Below are positions 7,796 to 63,905 of a stretch of DNA of 64,000 bases, piece after piece. The stretch is from an uncultured Candidatus Saccharibacteria bacterium (GTDB taxonomy: Bacteria > Patescibacteriota > Minisyncoccia > Phycocordibacterales > UBA12088). Below the pieces are notes generated by a model. That model made no database searches, was not told where the DNA came from, and saw only the letters and a program-made list of their open reading frames with translations. Where the stretch lies: assembly GCA_964411375.1 (NCBI GenBank), contig CAYPKR010000003.1:7237-71236 (forward strand), written 5' to 3'. The position numbers were made by a program, and so were the translations under genes. Positions within the stretch are counted from its first letter, which is position 1; each line of letters begins with the position of its first letter.

Positions 7796-9622
7796 ATGAA
7801 TCCCGATGAGCGAGTGACATATTTTGCAGAAACGGATGCGAGAGGAAAACGTGTTCGCTTCGGTATCAAAGCAAAGGATCGTTCGCGTCATATGTACGTG
7901 ATCGGCAAAACCGGTATGGGTAAATCGACCTTGCTTGAGAATATGGCGATTCAGGATATTCAAAATGGGGAAGGAATGACTTTCATCGATCCGCACGGTT
8001 CAACTGCCGAAAAATTACTTGATTACATTCCAGAAGATCGTATCAAGGATGTCTTATATTTTGCGCCATTCGACCTCGAATATCCGATTTCATTTAATGT
8101 GCTTGAACAAGTTGAGCCTGATAAGCGGCACTTGGTCGTCTCTGGTCTCATGGCGACGTTTGAAAAAATCTGGGTGGATGCATGGTCGGCGCGTATGGCG
8201 TACATTCTCCAAAATACGCTCTTGGCACTTCTCGAATATCCAGGTGCGACGATCCTTGGCGTTAATCGTATGTATTCTGACAAGGATTTTAGAAAGCGTG
8301 TGATTGAACATCTTACTGATCCGACCGCACGCTCATTTTGGGTTGATGAATATTCAAAATATACCGATCGCTATACGCAAGAAGCGACGCCAGCAATCCA
8401 AAACAAAATCGGTCAATTCGCATCAAATGCGCTTGTCCGTAATATCATCGGTCAGCCTCGATCGAGTTTTGATATTCGCAAATTAATGGACGAGAGAAAA
8501 ATCTTTATTGTTAACCTCTCAAAAGGACGAGTTGGTGAGGGAAATGCAAATCTCTTAGGCTCAATGCTTATCACTAAAATTTATCTCGCCGCAATGTCTC
8601 GTGCTGATTCGATTGGTCCAGTGCTTCGAGGACTTCCAAATTCGTATCTCTACGTAGACGAGTTTCAGTCATTTGCCAATCGATCGTTTGCAGATATTCT
8701 CTCCGAGGCGCGTAAATACAAATTGAATCTCACCATTGCGCATCAATATATCGAACAGATGGAAGAAGAAGTGCGTGCGGCAGTCTTCGGTAACGTCGGT
8801 ACCATGGTCGCATTCCGTGTTGGGTCATATGACGCAGAAACACTCGAGAAAGAATTCGCGCCAGTATTTACCATGGAAGACATTGTGAATCTCGGGTTCG
8901 CGCAGACGTATCTAAAACTCATGATTGACGGCGTTGCGTCCCAGCCGTTTTCTGCAGTTACGCTCGGTCCAATCGAAGCGCCAACAATCTCTAATCGCGA
9001 CCGGGCAATTGCGTATTCGCGCGCGCAATATGCGGCACGAAGGTCTGATACCGAAGAAACGATTCGCAAATGGCATGAGCCGGTTGTTCCAATAATCGGT
9101 GCGACTACTGCACCACCTTCTCAAAGAAGCGATGAGCGACGTTCGTTTGATAGTAATTCGCGACGAATGGAGCGTAGAGATGATTCTCCTCGTCCACCAA
9201 GAACTGATGATCGCCGACCTCGCGAAAACACGGAGCGACGAGAAGCTCCTCGAATAGAACGAGTTCCCGAACATCGCGATGCTCCGTCATCAGTTGTGCA
9301 AACTCCTGCGTCTCTCAAAGAAGTATTGGCGCGGATTGCAAATGCCGAAAAAGAAAAGCAGCAAGAAAAACAACAATCAAAAGAGCAGGCTCCTCGTGTT
9401 GAAAAAAATGATTCAAACGAACATCGCAAAAATACTTCTCATGCAAACCCTGATCAAAAAAGTGGCAACACCAATGAGCGAGAAAAACTCAAAGAAGCGC
9501 TCCAACATCTTGCAGAAAAAAAGCCGAATGGAGAGCATACAGAATCAAGACCGCACATGGCTCCAGAAGTATCAGAAGATGAACTTCGCAAATTACTGTA
9601 CGTCGAAGAACCTCCTAAATAG
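7796..9622 (+). CDS. VirD4/TraG/TraD-like type IV coupling-protein family P-loop ATPase with long low-complexity charged C-terminal tail
   Basis: Walker A IGKTGMGKST, Walker B-like YVDEFQSF, about 430-aa ATPase core then about 170 aa R/E/K/D/S-rich tail. Confidence 0.55.
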   Translation: MNPDERVTYFAETDARGKRVRFGIKAKDRSRHMYVIGKTGMGKSTLLENMAIQDIQNGEGMTFIDPHGSTAEKLLDYIPEDRIKDVLYFAPFDLEYPISFNVLEQVEPDKRHLVVSGLMATFEKIWVDAWSARMAYILQNTLLALLEYPGATILGVNRMYSDKDFRKRVIEHLTDPTARSFWVDEYSKYTDRYTQEATPAIQNKIGQFASNALVRNIIGQPRSSFDIRKLMDERKIFIVNLSKGRVGEGNANLLGSMLITKIYLAAMSRADSIGPVLRGLPNSYLYVDEFQSFANRSFADILSEARKYKLNLTIAHQYIEQMEEEVRAAVFGNVGTMVAFRVGSYDAETLEKEFAPVFTMEDIVNLGFAQTYLKLMIDGVASQPFSAVTLGPIEAPTISNRDRAIAYSRAQYAARRSDTEETIRKWHEPVVPIIGATTAPPSQRSDERRSFDSNSRRMERRDDSPRPPRTDDRRPRENTERREAPRIERVPEHRDAPSSVVQTPASLKEVLARIANAEKEKQQEKQQSKEQAPRVEKNDSNEHRKNTSHANPDQKSGNTNEREKLKEALQHLAEKKPNGEHTESRPHMAPEVSEDELRKLLYVEEPPK

Positions 9623-50472: not shown

Positions 50473-50665
50473 AAATAAAAAAATATTTTTCAAAAATAAA
50501 AAAATAAAAAGTTATCCACATATATTTTTAAAAATGATTGTATATACATCATTCATTCGCAATAATAGTGATACAGCGTTAGTCATCTTGCATAAAAAAT
50601 ATTTCGCAAAAATATTTGGTCGAAGATGAAACTACACGCCCATACTAATTAAAACAAAATCTATC

Positions 50666-55956: not shown

Positions 55957-57369
55957 ATGGCAACCTATCGCCCTACCATCGGACTCGAGATCCACGCAGA
56001 GCTTCGTACAAATACGAAGATGTTCTGCAACTCCAAAAATGACCCAGACGAGACTCGTCCGAACGTGAATATTTGCCCAGTCTGTATGGGGCATCCAGGG
56101 ACACTCCCGACGATCAATAAGGAGGCTGTAAAGCACGTCCTCAAGGTTGGACTCGCGCTCGGCGGAACTATTGCCGACTACACCGAATTTGATCGTAAAA
56201 ACTATTTCTACCCAGATATTCCAAAAGGCTATCAAATCAGCCAATACAAATATCCGCTTGTTGCCGGTGGGGAACTTGCGGGGATCTCGGTTACCCGAGT
56301 TCATCTCGAAGAAGATACTGCGCGCTCACAGCACGAAGGGGAAGGCAGTATCGTTGATTTCAATCGTGCAGGAGTTCCTTTGATGGAGCTGGTGACTGAA
56401 CCAGTTATTCATGACGCAGAGACTGCAGGAAAATTTGCAAAAGAATTACAACTCTTACTTCGAACACTTGGCGTTTCAAATGCCAACATGGAAAAAGGGG
56501 AAATGCGGGTCGAAGCAAATATCTCAATCTCGGCTAGCGAAGAATTCGGGACGAAAGTCGAGGTCAAAAACTTGAACTCCTTTAAGTCAGTCGAAAAGGC
56601 GATCGCGTACGAGCTGACTCGTCAGGCCGAGATCTTGGATAGGGGAGAAAAGGTGATTCAGGAAACGCGCGGTTGGGATGAAATCAAACAAGTAACATTT
56701 TCACAGCGTCTCAAAGAGACCAGTGAGGACTATCGATATTTTCCAGATCCTGATTTGCCAAAACTCATAATCTCAGAAGTGCCAGAATTTTCTGGAACAA
56801 ATCTTCGCGGAGAGATGCCGGAACTTCCGAATACAAAACGCGAACGCTACCAAAAAGAATTTGGACTGAAAGTTAGTGATATCGAAATATTTGTTACTGA
56901 TACAACGCTCGGAAACTTTTTTGAATCAACAATCGAAAAAATTTCTGACAAGAAAAATATTCAACTCGCGGCAAATTATATTACTTCCGACCTCGTCGGT
57001 CTTTTGAAGGGAAGTTCGGTCAAAGAATCAAAGTTAATTCCAGGTTCTTTTGCAGAACTAATCCAGATGAATGGTGAGGGGTTGCTATCATCGCGCGGCA
57101 CCAAAGACCTCCTTGCTGTCCTGGTCGCGGAAGGAGGCGAGCCAAGAGTCGTAGCTGAAGAAAGAGGACTCATTCAGGAAAATGATGAGGTGGCACTCCG
57201 GGGAGCAGTGGAGAAGGTGATAGCGGGGAATAGCGGGGCCGTAGAGGAGTTTAGAAATGGAAAAAAATCGTCGATTCAATTCCTCGTTGGACAAGTTATG
57301 AAAGAAACAAAAGGCTCGGCTAATCCAACTGCAGTCCAAAAGATACTCCGAGAAGTTCTCGGCAAGTAG
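55957..57369 (+). CDS. gatB: aspartyl/glutamyl-tRNA(Asn/Gln) amidotransferase subunit B
   Basis: PTIGLEIHAELRT, CPVCMGHPGTLP, GatB/YqeY C-terminal domain; 470 aa. Confidence 0.9.
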   Translation: MATYRPTIGLEIHAELRTNTKMFCNSKNDPDETRPNVNICPVCMGHPGTLPTINKEAVKHVLKVGLALGGTIADYTEFDRKNYFYPDIPKGYQISQYKYPLVAGGELAGISVTRVHLEEDTARSQHEGEGSIVDFNRAGVPLMELVTEPVIHDAETAGKFAKELQLLLRTLGVSNANMEKGEMRVEANISISASEEFGTKVEVKNLNSFKSVEKAIAYELTRQAEILDRGEKVIQETRGWDEIKQVTFSQRLKETSEDYRYFPDPDLPKLIISEVPEFSGTNLRGEMPELPNTKRERYQKEFGLKVSDIEIFVTDTTLGNFFESTIEKISDKKNIQLAANYITSDLVGLLKGSSVKESKLIPGSFAELIQMNGEGLLSSRGTKDLLAVLVAEGGEPRVVAEERGLIQENDEVALRGAVEKVIAGNSGAVEEFRNGKKSSIQFLVGQVMKETKGSANPTAVQKILREVLGK

Positions 57370-57387
57370 CTGGACGAAATAGGTAAT

Positions 57388-57420
57388 AAAAAGAATCTCG
57401 GCTAGCCGAGATTCTTTTTA
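57388..57420 (+). terminator. rho-independent terminator after gatB
   Basis: aaaaagaatctcggc-tag-ccgagattcttttt (stem about 13-15 bp plus T-run). Confidence 0.8.
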
Positions 57421-57712
57421 TTTAAAGGATATTTCAACGATTACTACCCTTGAGATTTAGGTACTCGCAAGACTATTAATGTCGAATTCCATGCCCTGCT
57501 CCCCTGTTTTACGACCCAGGATCTAGATGGTCGGGAAAGATAATGTATTTAAAAATAGAAAGCTAAATTAGCTCCGATTCGGAAGACTAGGGAACTCAAA
57601 CCTAAAACGACCAGCAATTAATTCTTTAAAGGGTTACTGATTTCTACTTGACCACAGATTTTTAATAAAATCGGCTAGCTCGATTTAACTAGTCTCGTGT
57701 AGAATAGCAGTA

Positions 57713-58546
57713 ATGGACGAACTCATAATTGGAGGAAAACAATATATCTCGTCAAGGCGAGCGGCTGAAATAACCGGCTATGCAAAAGACTATATCGGTC
57801 AACTTTGTCGGGGGAAACGTATCGAAGGGAAATTAGTCGGTCGTAATTGGTACGTTGAGCCGAGATCCCTACTCCATCTATCGGCAAAGAAAGGCAACAA
57901 CTCGCTTAGCGGAGATCAAGGCATCTCTCGTAGAGAAGAGGCTTCAAAAGGAGCAGAAATTCTCGCTGAGAGCACATTCGCGTATGAACCAGAAAATGTA
58001 GCATACGAAAACGACGAGTCTCCCTTAGTTCCTGTACTGAAAATAGCAAGGAAAGAAAGTGTGCAAGCTCAGGTCACTTCTACAGACACAGCTCTGGAGT
58101 CAGAAGAATTACCCAGTAACATAGCAATCGATTCTGCCGAGCAAAGGGAGTCTATTGATGAGCCTGTAAAGGTACGCAAGGTTTCAGTTAAGCCATCGGC
58201 TAATGCTGTCGATTTACGCATAATGGGACTTATAAGCGATACCAAGCGAAGGAAGCAAGAGACAGCGGAAAGAGTAGAGAGTCGCGCAGAGACAGAATTA
58301 CAAGCAGTTGAGAAGGTAGTTCAGCCTAAGGTCATAAAGAAGCGGGGGGTCTTTGTCCCAAAGCTATCTCTCGTTCCAGCCCTAAAATTTGCAGTAGTAA
58401 CAGCCAGTCTAATGTTTATACTAGGATCTGTTACAGACAGGACTCACGTTTACCCGAGTGGCAACAATCAGTACTCTATTTCTAGCGCTGCAAGCCTGAC
58501 TGCATCTGTCGAAGAGGGGATTAAAAATCTCGTTAAAACGAGATAA
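57713..58546 (+). CDS. membrane-anchored protein with N-terminal excisionase/MerR-like HTH_17 DNA-binding domain, charged linker and C-terminal TM helix
   Basis: YISSRRAAEITGYAKDYIGQLCRGKRIEGKLVGRNWYVEPRSL fits HTH_17 pattern (AAE..G.S...IY.L...G.L.A.KIGR.W.I...DLE.FL); TM at about aa 225-245. Confidence 0.6.
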   Translation: MDELIIGGKQYISSRRAAEITGYAKDYIGQLCRGKRIEGKLVGRNWYVEPRSLLHLSAKKGNNSLSGDQGISRREEASKGAEILAESTFAYEPENVAYENDESPLVPVLKIARKESVQAQVTSTDTALESEELPSNIAIDSAEQRESIDEPVKVRKVSVKPSANAVDLRIMGLISDTKRRKQETAERVESRAETELQAVEKVVQPKVIKKRGVFVPKLSLVPALKFAVVTASLMFILGSVTDRTHVYPSGNNQYSISSAASLTASVEEGIKNLVKTR

Positions 58547-58874
58547 TCTTATTTTAAAGCAAATAATGGGTACAAAAAGATTCCGTATCGCGGAGTCTTT
58601 TTTCTTGCATTAGGAATATTTGGGCTAGAAAGGAGGTAAATAAATATTTAGTCGGTGTTAGTAATCGAGGTAACCTATCCTCAGGAGGACAGAGGTTTGA
58701 TTCGAATGGATTCGTCGGATCATCGGAAAGTAAGGAATAGCGACTAGATGGGTGAGTCACTTCAAATTTCTTAAGATCTATCTTGTAGATAGAGGCGGTT
58801 GTTGCTGGAATCAGTCACAGATATTTGGAAGTAAGAATATCTATAATACGTTTTAAAATAAGATTATCTCGTTT
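58535..58874. repeat. 24-bp perfect inverted repeats (58535-58558 aaaacgagataatcttattttaaa / 58851-58874) flanking a 292-bp segment; candidate invertible promoter switch or MITE-like element
   Basis: IRs seen directly; left IR overlaps the stop codon of the upstream gene; consensus TATAAT at 58841-58846 oriented toward downstream genes lies just inside the right IR. Confidence 0.6.
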
Positions 58875-59102
58875 TGCCGAGATATATTTTTAAGCTAAAT
58901 AATTTTAAATAACCTATAACCGCCTTCAAATAATTTTTTGAGTCAATGCGAGTAAAATACCGTGGAAGCGATCCAATTGAGTCAAAAATCGATCTCAATA
59001 GGGAAATAAAGGCTAGATTTTGCTATTTTGAGGGGTTTTAGATCGGAAAGTTTCATTATTTCTATCCAAAATATTCTTTCTATCTTGATATATAGCCATC
59101 TT

Positions 59103-59868
59103 TTTTATTTTAAGAAAAAATAACCTCAAAAAAGATTCGTTGGAAGCTAAAAAAGTAACGAAAAAATCGAACCATCCGAGATTTTAGATTTGTTGAAAAA
59201 CCTAGTGATTCCGGATATCAAAGAAAGTCGATTTTATCCACAGAAATAGTTAGGTCGATGTCGATTTTATCTTGTAAAATATAAGTAATTCGTTCAAACG
59301 GATTAGCCATGAGCACTGTTCTTTTATTCGAAAATAGGGAATACATCGCATCTCGCGATGCAGCGCTCGATTCCGGGTATTCGCTTGATTACATTTCAAA
59401 ACTTTGTCGTTCAAAAAAATTGAACGCAAAGTTGATCGGAAAAAGTTGGTTTGTTGAAAAAGATTCGCTCGAACTTTTTCTTCAATTTTATTTTAAGAAA
59501 AAATAACCTCAAAAAAGATTCGTTGGAAGCTAAAAAAGTAACGAAAAAATCGAACCATCCGAGATTTTAGATTTGTTGAAAAACCTAGTGATTCCGGATA
59601 TCAAAGAAAGTCGATTTTATCCACAGAAATAGTTAGGTCGATGTCGATTTTATCTTGTAAAATATAAGTAATTCGTTCAAACGGATTAGCCATGAGCACT
59701 GTTCTTTTATTCGAAAATAGGGAATACATCGCATCTCGCGATGCAGCGCTCGATTCCGGGTATTCGCTTGATTACATTTCAAAACTTTGTCGTTCAAAAA
59801 AATTGAACGCAAAGTTGATCGGAAAAAGTTGGTTTGTTGAAAAAGATTCGCTCGAACTTTTTCTTCAA
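59103..59868. repeat. perfect tandem duplication, 2 x 383 bp (59103-59485 and 59486-59868)
   Basis: units identical on inspection; each contains promoter-like region, direct repeats GTCGATTTTATC x2, and first 59 codons of the HTH_17 gene. Confidence 0.9.
59309..59506 (+). pseudogene. truncated duplicate (65 aa) of N-terminal HTH_17 domain created by the 383-bp tandem duplication
   Basis: first 59 aa identical to gene 59692-60789, then 6 aa read into next repeat unit and stop. Confidence 0.5.
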
Positions 59869-60789
59869 TCACAAGAAAGAATCAAAATTGAAAATCAGAA
59901 GCGCCTTTCGCGTGAACGCCGCTCTGATTACCGCACCATTCGACTTCAGGAGAGTGTGGTCAAACTTCGAGAGAACATTTCAGAAACTGCATCGAATTCT
60001 GCCAAGGGAATTTTTTCACGTTTCCCTGCAATCGCCTCTACCCTCACTCTCGCAGTACTTCTCTATGCAGTCGTAAGCGGTACTATATCGATTTCGAACA
60101 TTTCAAATCGTGCACAGTCGGCACTTGCTGATGCGGCAAATACCATTGGTTTTATCGGTGATCTTGCGAGTCAAAATCAAACTGCATGGAATGCATTTAA
60201 TGCAAATATGCAGACTGCAATGATCGGTGTTTCAGAAGCGACAACTGATTTGCAAAAAAATATTGGATTTTTTGTAAACGAGATGAATCACGAGACAATG
60301 GTTAGTCACCGAGCAATTGGAGCATCAGCAAATACTGCAATCAGTGCGCTTACTACTACGGGTAAAAATATCGGATCGAACATCTACGCAGTGTTGCTTA
60401 CTCTCCATGACACTGCAATCGTATACGTGAATGGGCTCTGGGGTCACATGGCATTTGTCGCACCACAATCTCGAGAAATTTCTGAAGCACCAAAATCGAA
60501 TACGAACACAAATACAAACACGCCGACAACTGAAGATTCTGGCTCGCCGCAAGGAATGGTTGTGGTCCCATCGAACGGAACACCGAGTGCAGATGCCGAA
60601 CAAATTTCAAGAATTCAAAAGACGTTCTCTGACAAAGTTTCTGTGATACCGGCAGAAGACGGAGAAAGCGGAATTATTAGACCTGAATTTAAAGACACGA
60701 AAGGCAGTGATTATGTCTACGTGCTCGTTCCTGTTGGCGGCGGCGAACAAAATTCAGGAAGCGTAAATACTGGCGGTACGAAGCCATAA
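59692..60789 (+). CDS. membrane-anchored protein with N-terminal HTH_17 DNA-binding domain, one TM helix and about 230-aa extracytoplasmic C-terminal domain
   Basis: EYIASRDAALDSGYSLDYISKLCRSKKLNAKLIGKSWFVEKDSLELFL (HTH_17-like); TM FPAIASTLTLAVLLYAVVSG; paralogous N-domain to 57713-58546. Confidence 0.65.
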   Translation: MSTVLLFENREYIASRDAALDSGYSLDYISKLCRSKKLNAKLIGKSWFVEKDSLELFLQSQERIKIENQKRLSRERRSDYRTIRLQESVVKLRENISETASNSAKGIFSRFPAIASTLTLAVLLYAVVSGTISISNISNRAQSALADAANTIGFIGDLASQNQTAWNAFNANMQTAMIGVSEATTDLQKNIGFFVNEMNHETMVSHRAIGASANTAISALTTTGKNIGSNIYAVLLTLHDTAIVYVNGLWGHMAFVAPQSREISEAPKSNTNTNTNTPTTEDSGSPQGMVVVPSNGTPSADAEQISRIQKTFSDKVSVIPAEDGESGIIRPEFKDTKGSDYVYVLVPVGGGEQNSGSVNTGGTKP

Positions 60790-60878: not shown

Positions 60879-61817
60879 ATGTTCACACTGAATTCATCAC
60901 AACAGAAAAAAATTGCAGGAATTGCTCTTGGAGCACTTTCGATTTTCTTGGTGAATGGACTTAGTGCAATCGCAGCAGCACCGGAAGGCGCATTCATGGT
61001 GACACCGGCGAAAGTGGAAATCGACATCAATCCGGGAGAGACGGTGAGTCGAGACATCACGATCGAAAACAATACGGGAAGTGAAACAACATTTACGATG
61101 ACCGCAGAAAATATTTCAGGAACTCACAGTGGGAGTGAGACCGTCGTATTTTCAAATGCAACTGACACAGCATCATCGCTCAAAGAAAATATTTCGTTTG
61201 AAAAAAATACATTCACGATTGCAAACGGAGGAAAAATTTCACTTCCTGTTACGATCACCATTCCGCAAAACGCAGAACCATCGGGACGCTACGCGGCAGT
61301 GTTAGTTAAAGCGATTCCATCTGGATCAGCGAGCGGCGCATCAGTTGCATCGCAAATCGGCGTACTCTTTTTCGTACGCGTCGCAGGAGACACTGGTGCA
61401 AACGCAACGCTCAAAAAATTCGGGACAAAAAATGATGCATATCTGTTTGCAAATGCTGACGTGCCATTTCGAGTGACGTTTGAAAATACCGGAAACGTAC
61501 ACGTAAATCCGTATGGAAAAATCTGGATTCGAAATATGCTCGGACAAAAAGTTGGAGAAATTATTCTCGACCCATGGTTCGTGCTTCCAAATTCAGTACG
61601 CACACGTGACGCTGAGTGGAAAATGTCTGGCGCATTCGGCGTATACCGCGCAGTACTTGAAGTGAATCGCGGATACGAAAATATTGTTGAAAGCGCATCG
61701 GTCTCGTTTGTCGTGTTGCCGTGGTATGTTCTGCCAACCTTGCTTATTTTCCTCGGTGCAATTGTGTGGGTTCTGTCAGTTCGACAAGCACGCAAAAAAA
61801 CAGAGCAAACAATATGA
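60879..61817 (+). CDS. secreted cell-surface protein with signal peptide and C-terminal TM anchor + basic tail (DUF916/DUF3324-like architecture)
   Basis: N-terminal signal (IAGIALGALSIFLVNGLSAIAAA), C-terminal WYVLPTLLIFLGAIVWVLSVRQARKK; ATG 60879 preferred over upstream GTG. Confidence 0.5.
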   Translation: MFTLNSSQQKKIAGIALGALSIFLVNGLSAIAAAPEGAFMVTPAKVEIDINPGETVSRDITIENNTGSETTFTMTAENISGTHSGSETVVFSNATDTASSLKENISFEKNTFTIANGGKISLPVTITIPQNAEPSGRYAAVLVKAIPSGSASGASVASQIGVLFFVRVAGDTGANATLKKFGTKNDAYLFANADVPFRVTFENTGNVHVNPYGKIWIRNMLGQKVGEIILDPWFVLPNSVRTRDAEWKMSGAFGVYRAVLEVNRGYENIVESASVSFVVLPWYVLPTLLIFLGAIVWVLSVRQARKKTEQTI

Positions 61818-62564: not shown

Positions 62565-63905
62565 ATGCGAACGTTTCTCTCACTCATCTTCCTCGCAACA
62601 TTCATGGCACTTCCACTCCTCACTCTTCGCGCAGCTGAAACCGGAACCTTCACGGTCGGTCTTTCGGTTACTGCACCAACTGGAGGTAGTACGACTGGCA
62701 CGACAGGAACAGGGACGACTGGGGGAACAACGGGAGGAAACGGCGCACCACCAGAACATCAGCTTCCAAAAATTCTAAACGTGATCGTAACTCCTGATAT
62801 TCATTCATCACTCATCACGTATACGACTGATCCACATGCACTTGGTTCGATTCAATATGGAAAAACAATCGACTACGAGGCAGGAACCATTTCTGAATCC
62901 TTCTATGTCACGAGTCACGCGACACAAATTTCTGGACTTGAAGCAGATACACTCTACTACTTCAAAATTTCAGTCATTGATGGGTTTGGTGGAATCGCTA
63001 CATATATAGGTACGTTCCACACCACCGAAGTCGCGACAACTCCAACTCCAGTTACTCCGGCAAACCCAACAACATTCACTGCAACGCCGCACGCAAAAGA
63101 GATTGATCTTAATTGGATTACTCCGGGCGTCGTAAATCCAGAAGTGCGCATCATGAAATCAGATTCGTTCTATCCGAATGATCCAAGTGACGGCACACTT
63201 CTTTTTGAAGGATACGGTAATTCATTTCCTGATACCGATGTTGTCCCTGGAAAAACCTACTACTACACGCTCTTCGTAAAACAGGGAGACGAATATTCTT
63301 CCGGAGTTATTGCAAAAGCAACCGTTCCAAATGTTGGTGTTGAACCACTTCCACCTTCTTCAAATCCGTTCGAAGGATTGCCAACCTCATCAAACATCGA
63401 TCCAAAAATTCAATCGCTCACGCTTGAAGATTTCCTCTTCATTCAAGATGGAAAAATTCTTTCTTCGCATAACGGACAGATCAACATCGATGGAGAAAAG
63501 AATTTGACCGTTATCTTGCCGTACGATCGCGTGCCGGAAATCTTGAAGACCATCGGTATCACACTCCACGACCCAGAAGATCCTGCAAAAACATTCACGT
63601 TCTTGCTTCGAGTGAATGAAGATAAAAGCGGATATGTTGCAACAATCGCCCCACTTGGTCGCTCAGGAATCTACAATCTCGCGATCATCATCCTCGACTA
63701 CAAAAATCAAGGACTCAAGGAACTCAAAGGTGCGCTTCTTGCCGAAGTACAAACTGCGCTCCCAATAGTCGGCGGACTCCTTGGCCGAATTTCAAACCTA
63801 CTTGATTGCCCACCGTTCTTCCTCGCTATTTTCCTTTCGGTCATTTTGGCAGGCGCGCTACCACGTCGCCGCAAAGACCATGGGGTAATCGCCGCTTCTG
63901 CCTGA
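62565..63905 (+). CDS. surface protein with signal peptide, TG-rich linker, fibronectin type III-like domains and C-terminal TM anchor
   Basis: ISGLEADTLYYFKISV and VVPGKTYYYTLFV FN3-like strands; C-terminal PFFLAIFLSVILAGALPRRRK anchor. Confidence 0.6.
   Translation: MRTFLSLIFLATFMALPLLTLRAAETGTFTVGLSVTAPTGGSTTGTTGTGTTGGTTGGNGAPPEHQLPKILNVIVTPDIHSSLITYTTDPHALGSIQYGKTIDYEAGTISESFYVTSHATQISGLEADTLYYFKISVIDGFGGIATYIGTFHTTEVATTPTPVTPANPTTFTATPHAKEIDLNWITPGVVNPEVRIMKSDSFYPNDPSDGTLLFEGYGNSFPDTDVVPGKTYYYTLFVKQGDEYSSGVIAKATVPNVGVEPLPPSSNPFEGLPTSSNIDPKIQSLTLEDFLFIQDGKILSSHNGQINIDGEKNLTVILPYDRVPEILKTIGITLHDPEDPAKTFTFLLRVNEDKSGYVATIAPLGRSGIYNLAIIILDYKNQGLKELKGALLAEVQTALPIVGGLLGRISNLLDCPPFFLAIFLSVILAGALPRRRKDHGVIAASA

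Follow-up and report, generated by a model that had tools for sequence, protein, structure and literature searches.

Genes at the locus

The DNA analysed here, hereafter the window, is a 64-kb stretch of contig CAYPKR010000003.1 from an uncultured bacterium of the Patescibacteria (candidate phyla radiation, CPR). All window coordinates are numbered from its first letter. Downstream of gatB it carried two paralogous genes, A and C, whose products are very probably membrane-anchored winged-helix proteins. The two genes, their predicted parts and a duplication between them were as follows.

57713 to 58546, + strand: gene A, 277 aa, with a winged helix at residues 1-55, a long, mostly acidic linker, a basic patch and one transmembrane (TM) helix
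58364 to 58435, + strand: predicted TM helix of A (residues about 218-241), followed by a tail of about 36 aa outside
59692 to 60789, + strand: gene C, 365 aa, with a winged helix at residues 1-55 and a basic helix at about 56-107
60019 to 60093, + strand: predicted TM helix of C (residues about 110-134), followed by about 230 aa outside
60547 to 60732, + strand: conserved C-terminal block of C (residues about 286-347), at the end of the ectodomain
59309 to 59506, + strand: open reading frame (ORF) B, 65 aa, the C winged helix alone, without a TM helix
59103 to 59868, + strand: perfect tandem duplication, 2 x 383 bp (59103-59485 and 59486-59868, 100% identical)

Residues 4-53 of A and 5-54 of C shared 48% identity over about 50 residues (BLASTP, E 5e-15). 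The preliminary description of this DNA had listed three ORFs with a common N-terminal domain. This held for A and C, and the 65-aa ORF turned out to be a product of the duplication of C, being composed of the first 59 codons of C and six out-of-frame codons. The gene family of the window is two paralogues and one duplication product. Each 383-bp unit comprised the C promoter region, a DnaA box and the first 59 codons of C. The nearest relative, locus L086, did not contain the duplication, which is therefore recent or possibly an assembly artefact. It yields a free-standing, promoter-equipped copy of the DNA-binding-type domain of C.

Fold of the N-terminal domain

An HTH_17 domain of the excisionase/MerR type had been proposed for these proteins and was examined by hidden Markov model (HMM) searches and structure prediction. 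HTH_17 (PF12728) scored 13.5 bits in A, 22.0 bits in the 65-aa ORF and 20.3 bits in C, all below the gathering cut-off of 27, and reached 29.8 and 33.3 bits, above the cut-off, in two giant relatives. Among the 37 aligned family members, 16 matched HTH_17 at E<=1e-3 and no other Pfam family recurred. Judged from these profile matches, the HTH_17 assignment is sound at family level. The window proteins gave no Pfam match to MerR or MerR_1 and none to Trans_reg_C at E<=1. HTH_25 and DUF4115 were matched neither by the window proteins nor by the aligned family members.

The AlphaFold model of the N-terminal domain (37 sequences) reached a predicted local distance difference test (pLDDT) value of 86 and a predicted template modelling score (pTM) of 0.67. 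Its secondary structure was that of a beta-beta-alpha-alpha-beta-beta-alpha winged helix, so that the predicted fold is of the Xis/MerR N-domain type. The best matches in the PDB, obtained with Foldseek, were TraN, whose entries ranked first, the Pukovnik Xis of a mycobacteriophage, BldC, RacA, the excisionase RdfS and the MerR protein MtaN. Foldseek E-values were weak (0.03-0.3) because the domain is small; probabilities were 0.9-1.0 and TM-scores 0.55-0.7. Seven columns were invariant across A- and C-types, namely G23, Y24, D27, Y28, R34, G44 and W47, and the domain was strongly conserved among the A-types, with 67% mean identity. The Pfam matches in relatives, the model and its structural neighbours all agreed with the fold proposed in the preliminary description.

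Membrane topology

TM segments were called from Kyte-Doolittle hydropathy and the positive-inside rule. A single hydrophobic segment was found per protein, at about 218-241 in A and about 110-134 in C. Five or four lysine and arginine residues stood just before the segment and none or one after it. Because of this basic stretch and the near absence of charge on the other side, A and C should be bitopic and oriented N-in/C-out, with the winged helix in the cytoplasm and the C-terminus outside. Outside the membrane, A would expose a tail of about 36 aa and C one of about 230 aa. In the full-length model of C, a long helix ran from the winged helix to the TM segment, with low confidence beyond residue 80. 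Hydropathy and charge bias thus agreed with the earlier description of a single TM helix followed by an extracytoplasmic tail or domain. Its comparison with a ToxR/CadC-type topology built on a different DNA-binding fold was likewise borne out by the predicted topology, the missing Trans_reg_C match and the Xis/MerR fold.

Distribution and synteny of the gene pair

A word-indexed search with A returned more than 331 homologues, and every named one originated from metagenome-assembled genomes of Patescibacteria, Paceibacterota or Minisyncoccia. An A-type profile searched against 1.84 billion cluster representatives (50% identity) retrieved 6,685 of them at E<=1e-3, 4,696 at E<=1e-10 and 1,234 at E<=1e-30. 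All 126 of 126 further A-type representatives showed the domain, an acidic linker, a juxtamembrane net charge of +4, exactly one TM helix and an external tail of 16-32 residues. The motifs W..P.Y and MQ.AW..WF were conserved within the otherwise disordered acidic linker. Some A-types, including the variants L009, L043, L047, L057 and P0011-P0016, carried two tandem winged helices, and loci L050 and L075 held three consecutive winged-helix membrane genes. Only five close relatives of C were found, and its N-terminal module was widespread. A homologue search with the conserved C-terminal block of C gave no match, nor did two metagenome scans yield further members of the window lineage.

Eighty loci were fetched from species-representative genomes and scanned with the N-domain HMM and hydropathy. 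The order obg-gatB-[A]-C was the same in about 80 species-level genomes of Patescibacteria. In almost every locus, (wzy-murB-secA-)obg-gatB, a short A-type gene and a C-type gene lay on the same strand, and the genes flanking the module were co-oriented. The preliminary description had called for a search for the same architecture in related genomes; a TM helix was present in A, C and all examined homologues. Its idea of a self-contained module gave way to that of a local version of a pair kept after gatB in about 80 species-level CPR genomes. Zambryski/Nomura-type lineages had C without A, with dnaA-dnaN about 9 kb upstream. The gap between A and C had a median of 590 nt and a range of 156 to 1,239 nt. 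The A-C spacers of 49 loci (58547-59691 in the window) had 38.6% GC, compared with 53.9% for the loci, were long for compact genomes and were conserved at their two ends only.

In C-type proteins the winged helix began at residue 1-10, and the TM helix lay at about residue 100-150. Complete C-type ORFs ranged from 365 to 2,920 aa (for example 427, 581, 588, 832, 1,546, 2,006, 2,102, 2,462, 2,699 and 2,920 aa). Many others exceeded 3,300 aa and ran off the locus, and the external part usually comprised 2,000 to more than 3,300 residues. No Pfam domain besides HTH_17 was found in the giant C-types, and the ectodomain of the window C had no detectable similarity to the giant ectodomains. The window lineage is a derived form, with a short C and with surface proteins encoded by separate downstream genes. 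Many contigs stopped 0.2-3 kb into the C-type gene (L008, L012, L013, L015, L019, L020, L022, L023, L026-L030 and others), which suggests repeats or strain-level hypervariability within the giant gene. A typical CPR module was also present on two contigs filed as non-CPR, L014 (Nitrospira sp.) and L068 (Bacillota); these labels probably reflect binning contamination and not a true occurrence outside the CPR.

Palindromes of the module

Three copies of a palindrome of the form ATCTCG-N6-CGAGAT, with CGAGAT as half-site, were found in the window.

57395 to 57412, no strand: palindrome 1, ATCTCGGCTAGCCGAGAT, perfect over 18 bp, situated after gatB and 318 nt ahead of A
58527 to 58544, no strand: palindrome 2, ATCTCGTTAAAACGAGAT, overlapping the last codons of A (N-L-V-K-T-R-stop)
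58866 to 58883, no strand: palindrome 3, ATCTCGTTTTGCCGAGAT, in the A-C spacer

All three lay at the A/C locus, and shuffles of the 64 kb expect 0.04. The position of palindrome 1 was also occupied in the two nearest relatives, L001 (7468) and L086 (1-18), the layout of palindrome 2 was repeated in L086 (1173-1190) and L018, and L001 had a further copy at 9381. Palindrome statistics were calculated over 1.15 Mb of loci, in which the A/C module makes up 12.4% of the sequence. Of the perfect palindromes with N=6, 17/18 were inside the module (P 6e-15), as were 42/51 copies with one mismatch (P 7e-30), leaving 9 outside. When spacers of 2-10 nt were allowed, 19 perfect copies were obtained and 18/19 had N=6. 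Non-coding conservation between the window and L086 was limited to the palindromic elements and the C promoter.

In other loci the palindrome was situated 0 to +20 nt past the A stop codon or overlapped the last codons of A. Loci without A had it at -79 from the C ATG, abutting the DnaA box, and in lineages without A a palindrome site was also seen 212-248 nt into the C-type genes. Palindromes within coding sequence coincided with the YISSKRA codons near the start of A and the NLVKTR-stop codons at its end. A scan flagged palindrome 1 as a hairpin bordered by runs of A and of T. Because several copies were palindromic through the centre, a dimer on double-stranded DNA would fit better than an RNA hairpin.

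Promoters and DnaA box

For all A- and C-type genes of the fetched loci, promoters were aligned over 70 nt of upstream sequence and proved strongly conserved across species-level genomes. The following elements were read in the window.

57700 to 57705, + strand: predicted -10 box of A (TAGAAT), 7 nt before the ATG, read from sequence
59617 to 59625, + strand: DnaA-box consensus TTATCCACA, upstream of both the C ATG (by 75 nt) and the predicted start site (by about 49 nt)
59234 to 59242, + strand: duplicate copy of TTATCCACA, arising from the 383-bp duplication
59658 to 59691, + strand: predicted -10 box of C (TAAAAT, 59658-59663), then a conserved 5' leader TAATTCGTTCAAACGGATTAGCC (59669-59691)

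The block GTGTAGAATA at the A promoter was conserved in L001 and L086. A-type promoters elsewhere read TATA(A/C)T-N7-ATG, with the consensus (C)GAG(A/C)CGAGA(A/T)A..TATA(A/C)T-N7-ATG, and CGAGATA occurred in 18/55 A promoters compared with 0/171 control upstream regions. The -10 box stood exactly 7 nt before the ATG, with no leader, in about 50 loci. From this predicted position, A-type mRNAs are probably leaderless. C-type genes of lineages without A showed the same leaderless arrangement. In the window, the stretch of the C -10 box and leader was 89% identical to L086. Most other C-type loci had TAATTCGGATATCCGAC-ATG directly at the start codon, of which the TAATTCGTTCAAACGGATTAGCC of the window is a variant. 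The TAATTCGGATATCCGAC leader contained the 12-bp palindrome TCGGATATCCGA, and no Shine-Dalgarno-like sequence was visible at this leader. TATCCGA was present in 35/82 and TAATTCG in 33/82 C promoters, compared with 1/171 control upstream regions.

The most conserved promoter element was TTATCCACA, which occurred before about 70/83 C-type genes (loci L003-L085) in + orientation and at a fixed distance. It stood at -53 in the leaderless type, with TATAAT 7 nt before the ATG, and, in genes with a leader of about 16 nt, at -69 or -78. In leaderless and leadered types alike, this puts it about 49 nt ahead of the predicted start site. The preliminary description had proposed GTCGATTTTATC as operator repeat. 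Four copies were present in the window, but they were not conserved in L001 and L086; conserved beneath the first copy was the DnaA box TTATCCACA, which that copy overlies.

An exact TTATCCACA was also located at 50512-50520, in the murB-secA gap, a position that recurred in at least nine other loci, and the box was found upstream of dnaN in other loci. Because the box recurs at these two places, DnaA is the simplest candidate for its binder. The pattern points to a small DnaA regulon with the giant surface-protein gene as a member, and the fixed position of the conserved box at this promoter suggests that surface-protein expression may be tied to the replication cycle. TTATCCACA was rejected as a generic promoter element of the window, because the 64 kb held just three exact copies, of which the duplicated C site accounts for two, and boxes with <=1 mismatch were no more frequent than expected by chance. 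The A-C spacer was also considered as an oriC and rejected. The 49 spacers contained 43 DnaA boxes with <=1 mismatch and never more than two each, and boxes with two mismatches were counted near chance. With a single box per spacer instead of a cluster, and with co-oriented flanking genes, the spacer would not be an origin.

Inverted repeat in the spacer

A 46-nt inverted repeat (58527-58572 and 58838-58883), with arms 83% complementary, flanked 265 nt. Each arm consisted of one palindrome (palindrome 2 left, palindrome 3 right) plus AT-rich flanks. The layout was found with 629 nt between the arms in L001 and 307 nt in L086. Between the window and L086, the arms, the palindrome after gatB and the last about 120 nt before C were conserved, and the inner segment was unrelated in either orientation. 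In those neighbouring genes that were scanned with Pfam, no recombinase, integrase or invertase domain was found. The putative invertible, possibly phase-variable element of the preliminary description was therefore not upheld. Since the arms were conserved around an unrelated inner segment, they appear to be the functional units, and an invertible promoter is unlikely.

The region 58520-58895 had a fold z-score of -7.7, produced by the arms of the repeat pairing together. Rfam gave nothing at gathering score in the window, with chance-level matches for 57350-59750 and for L001 7440-10010, and the RNA scan found no tRNAs. A hidden RNA gene in the spacers was rejected on these results. The segment between the arms in L001 (8822-9380, 629 nt) looked GC-rich and had no ORF of >=100 aa and no Rfam match.

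Downstream surface genes

C was followed by three genes for secreted or anchored proteins and the start of a fourth.

60879 to 61817, + strand: gene D, with an N-terminal signal/anchor, an immunoglobulin (Ig)/Fn3-like region and a C-terminal TM helix
61811 to 62560, + strand: gene E, secreted, with distant similarity to PamT, which is predicted to be the tip pilin of the Pam pilus of CPR bacteria
62565 to 63905, + strand: gene F, with a signal peptide, Fn3-like domains and a C-terminal TM helix
63915 to 64000, + strand: start of the next gene, with a signal peptide, running off the window; its L001 counterpart is at least 1,267 aa

The Pfam matches of D, fn3_5 and WxLIP_PGBD, were all below threshold. 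E matched NCBIfam NF058579 with E 2.8e-10 and 40 bits against a cut-off of 240, and D and F had no NCBIfam match at E<=1. PDB sequence searches were uninformative for the N-terminal domain, D and E, and returned only weak Fn3 matches for F. PHROGs and PADLOC were both scanned and gave no match for A, C, D and E; F had one weak match (E 8e-4) to an unannotated PHROG. C was followed by D, E and F in 3/3 genomes of the lineage, namely the window, L001 (GCA_964567265.1) and L086, with the downstream genes at 11162-18164 in L001 and 3206-5695 in L086. On one contig the next gene began 2 nt past the annotated end of C. A large secreted protein came after F in this lineage, and homologues of D, E and F were found in this lineage only among the loci examined. 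The link to a surface-protein locus made in the preliminary description was thus supported, as C preceded D, E and F in all three genomes and the three proteins carried signal or anchor segments.

The downstream genes have the appearance of a reduced relative of the Pam pilus. D resembled the chaperones PamC and PamD (Ig-like, with a C-terminal TM helix), F resembled PamR (Fn3-type, with a C-terminal TM helix), E was a weak relative of PamT, and the large protein after F was tail-fibre-like. However, the single model match was that of E, at 40 instead of 240 bits, and no PamA- or PamB-type pilins were found among the downstream genes, so that these genes fall outside the Pam system as defined. 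The available part of the account of the Pam operon and its neighbourhood names no helix-turn-helix membrane protein (10.64898/2026.03.03.709456).

Proposed function

The winged helices of A and C probably bind DNA, and it is possible, with some doubt, that the pair regulates this locus. Tentatively, A and C are read here as membrane-tethered DNA-binding (auto)regulators of a surface locus that follow a ToxR-like logic on a different fold. The winged helices would bind sites confined to the module, with ATCTCG-N6-CGAGA(T/A) as the main candidate. In the window, candidate sites precede A, coincide with its end and occur within the A-C spacer; in genomes without A, the palindrome abuts the C promoter. 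The palindrome suggests itself as their site, since no DNA-binding-type domains other than the winged helices are always encoded adjacent to it. From the membrane, A and C would act as auto-regulators of the surface-protein operon in the manner of ToxR/TcpP, and a second input would come from the lone DnaA box, about 49 nt ahead of the C start site. The conserved, module-specific cis-elements make a regulatory role more plausible, and the combination of a module-specific palindrome of fixed spacer with winged helices makes auto-regulation from the membrane the best single model. We infer DNA binding, the assignment of protein to site and the transcriptional effect alike.

Several points weigh against regulation from the membrane. 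The full-length model of C had a pLDDT of 48 and was trustworthy for residues 1-80 only. Since the DnaA box was the most conserved promoter element, the actual regulator may be a different protein. The palindromes lie between A-runs and T-runs, and a simple scan scored them as terminator-like (bidirectional). Some matches coincide with the codons of conserved peptides, and part of the palindrome enrichment is thus coupled to coding. An ectodomain of thousands of residues is unlike known transmembrane regulators, and C, with a linker of only about 50 residues between winged helix and membrane, could reach DNA only where the DNA, too, is held at the membrane. The conserved position beside housekeeping genes in many genomes could reflect a structural or cell-cycle role instead.

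A further proposal concerns the giant C-types. Giant surface proteins of Paceibacteria, and in the window lineage a pilus-like surface assembly, may be joined via one TM helix to a sequence-specific DNA-binding domain, with a small paralogous partner, forming an adhesin-to-DNA link that passes contact to transcription or pins the locus. We regard this as somewhat unlikely. To our knowledge, direct coupling of an adhesin to DNA is undescribed in bacteria.

Comparison with known systems

A and C share with ToxR, TcpP and CadC the predicted layout of a cytoplasmic N-terminal winged helix, one TM helix and an external C-terminus. As with ToxR and TcpP, two paralogous membrane-bound proteins are encoded at one locus, and the regulated genes of that system are surface and virulence genes. 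They differ in fold, which is Xis/MerR (HTH_17) and not the OmpR-type Trans_reg_C that characterises the ToxR-like proteins. They also have no recognisable periplasmic sensor domain; A exposes almost nothing, whereas C-types usually expose thousands of residues. MerR regulators are soluble and combine the winged helix with a coiled-coil dimerisation helix and an effector-binding region; in the model of C, at low confidence, the helix enters the TM segment instead. RsgI anti-sigma factors of clostridia are likewise single-pass proteins with a cytoplasmic regulatory domain and large surface-exposed sensing modules, but their cytoplasmic part binds a sigma factor and not DNA, and they have no sequence or fold relation to A and C. 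Xis, BldC, RacA and TraN, the best structural matches of the N-terminal domain, are all soluble and have neither a TM helix nor an external part; TraN is built of two winged-helix domains in tandem, like some A-types, and RacA ties DNA to a membrane-associated site.

The preliminary description did not recognise a described regulator class. The combination of HTH_17 and a TM helix is, however, already contained in a census of transmembrane regulators, which catalogued more than 100 kinds of DNA-binding domain by domain content (Demey et al. 2023, PMC10269533). There, 151 of 50,302 proteins are listed as HTH_17+TM and none of them is functionally characterised. The term 'Patescibacteria' does not appear in the available text and supplements, and RodZ-type proteins with HTH_25+DUF4115 are counted as transmembrane regulators (PMC10269533). 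The census asks for a DNA-binding domain and at least one TM region in one polypeptide, and A and C have this combination by prediction. As far as the available portions go, no gene pair, synteny, giant ectodomain or cis-elements are described there for the HTH_17+TM proteins. A literature search of incomplete coverage found no paper on the pair, the synteny, the giant C-types or the cis-elements.

Alternative explanations

Two rivals deserve serious weight, a DNA-membrane tether and a protein scaffold. The stronger of them, although unlikely, is a tether without a regulatory role, in which the locus or a chromosomal region is held at the membrane. Such a tether could ease the co-translational insertion of a long surface protein or anchor the nucleoid at a contact site, as RacA does at the pole. 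The architectural and anchoring proteins Xis, BldC and RacA were among the best structural matches. Sites around and within the module genes, beyond the promoters, are consistent with a tether. So are the great length of the C-types, which would be inserted co-translationally from a signal-anchor 100-150 residues in, and the unusually long, AT-rich A-C spacer (median 590 nt, 38.6% vs 53.9% GC). In loci without A, on the other hand, the palindrome is at a classical regulatory position beside the DnaA box and the promoter, and the short C of the window lineage needs no help with a giant product.

A scaffold for protein interaction is less probable still. Here the winged helix would dock a cytoplasmic partner and organise the assembly of envelope or surface proteins, in the way RodZ works with MreB. 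RodZ consists of a helix-turn-helix domain, a basic juxtamembrane stretch, a single TM helix and an external part, and its helix-turn-helix docks MreB. The parts of A and C have the same order, and both systems are conserved, chromosomal and encoded at a single locus. The motifs W..P.Y and MQ.AW..WF in the disordered A-type linker are typical of protein docking, the N-terminal domain of A is very conserved and murB, secA and obg are neighbours. The Xre-type domain of RodZ, however, binds MreB and not DNA, and A and C match neither HTH_25 nor DUF4115. Their fold and conserved residues are of the DNA-binding Xis/MerR type, and palindromes of fixed spacer need a DNA-binding protein, for which these are the only domains always encoded there.

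A contact sensor with release appears improbable. The host would be sensed by the ectodomain or fibre, and cleavage within or near the membrane would free the winged helix as a soluble regulator, comparable to membrane-bound regulators that proteolysis activates or to RsgI-type anti-sigma factors. A giant or pilus-linked surface part on the same polypeptide as a DNA-binding-type domain would suit this mechanism, and the window, through its duplication, provides an instance of a free domain encoded with its own promoter. Against it, no protease gene was conserved in the module, no cleavage motif was identified, and the A-types expose only 16-32 residues, which leaves little to sense with.

A mobile-element remnant or phase switch, with excisionase-like recombination directionality factors and an invertible promoter segment, is highly improbable: HTH_17 is the excisionase family, the 46-nt inverted repeat flanks 265 nt and a perfect tandem duplication adjoins, but the chromosomal position is fixed in about 80 species, A and C had no PHROGs or PADLOC matches, the scanned neighbouring genes had no integrase or invertase domain, all homologues have a TM helix and the conserved arms enclose segments unrelated between relatives in either orientation. 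Identity with a phage or mobile-element excisionase was rejected on the TM helix, the housekeeping neighbours in fixed order and the lack of PHROGs matches.

Implications for CPR bacteria

CPR bacteria are ultra-small and are believed to spend their lives attached to other cells; they have tiny genomes and few recognisable regulators. In the Paceibacteria loci examined, few genes kept their place as consistently as the A/C pair, which is very abundant in metagenomes. The hypothesis of membrane-tethered regulators can be tested with synthetic genes in E. coli, without cultivating CPR organisms. If the N-terminal domains bind the palindrome, this would provide a defined operator-regulator pair for a group with almost no known circuits, and it would offer a reason why giant surface proteins begin with a cytoplasmic domain.

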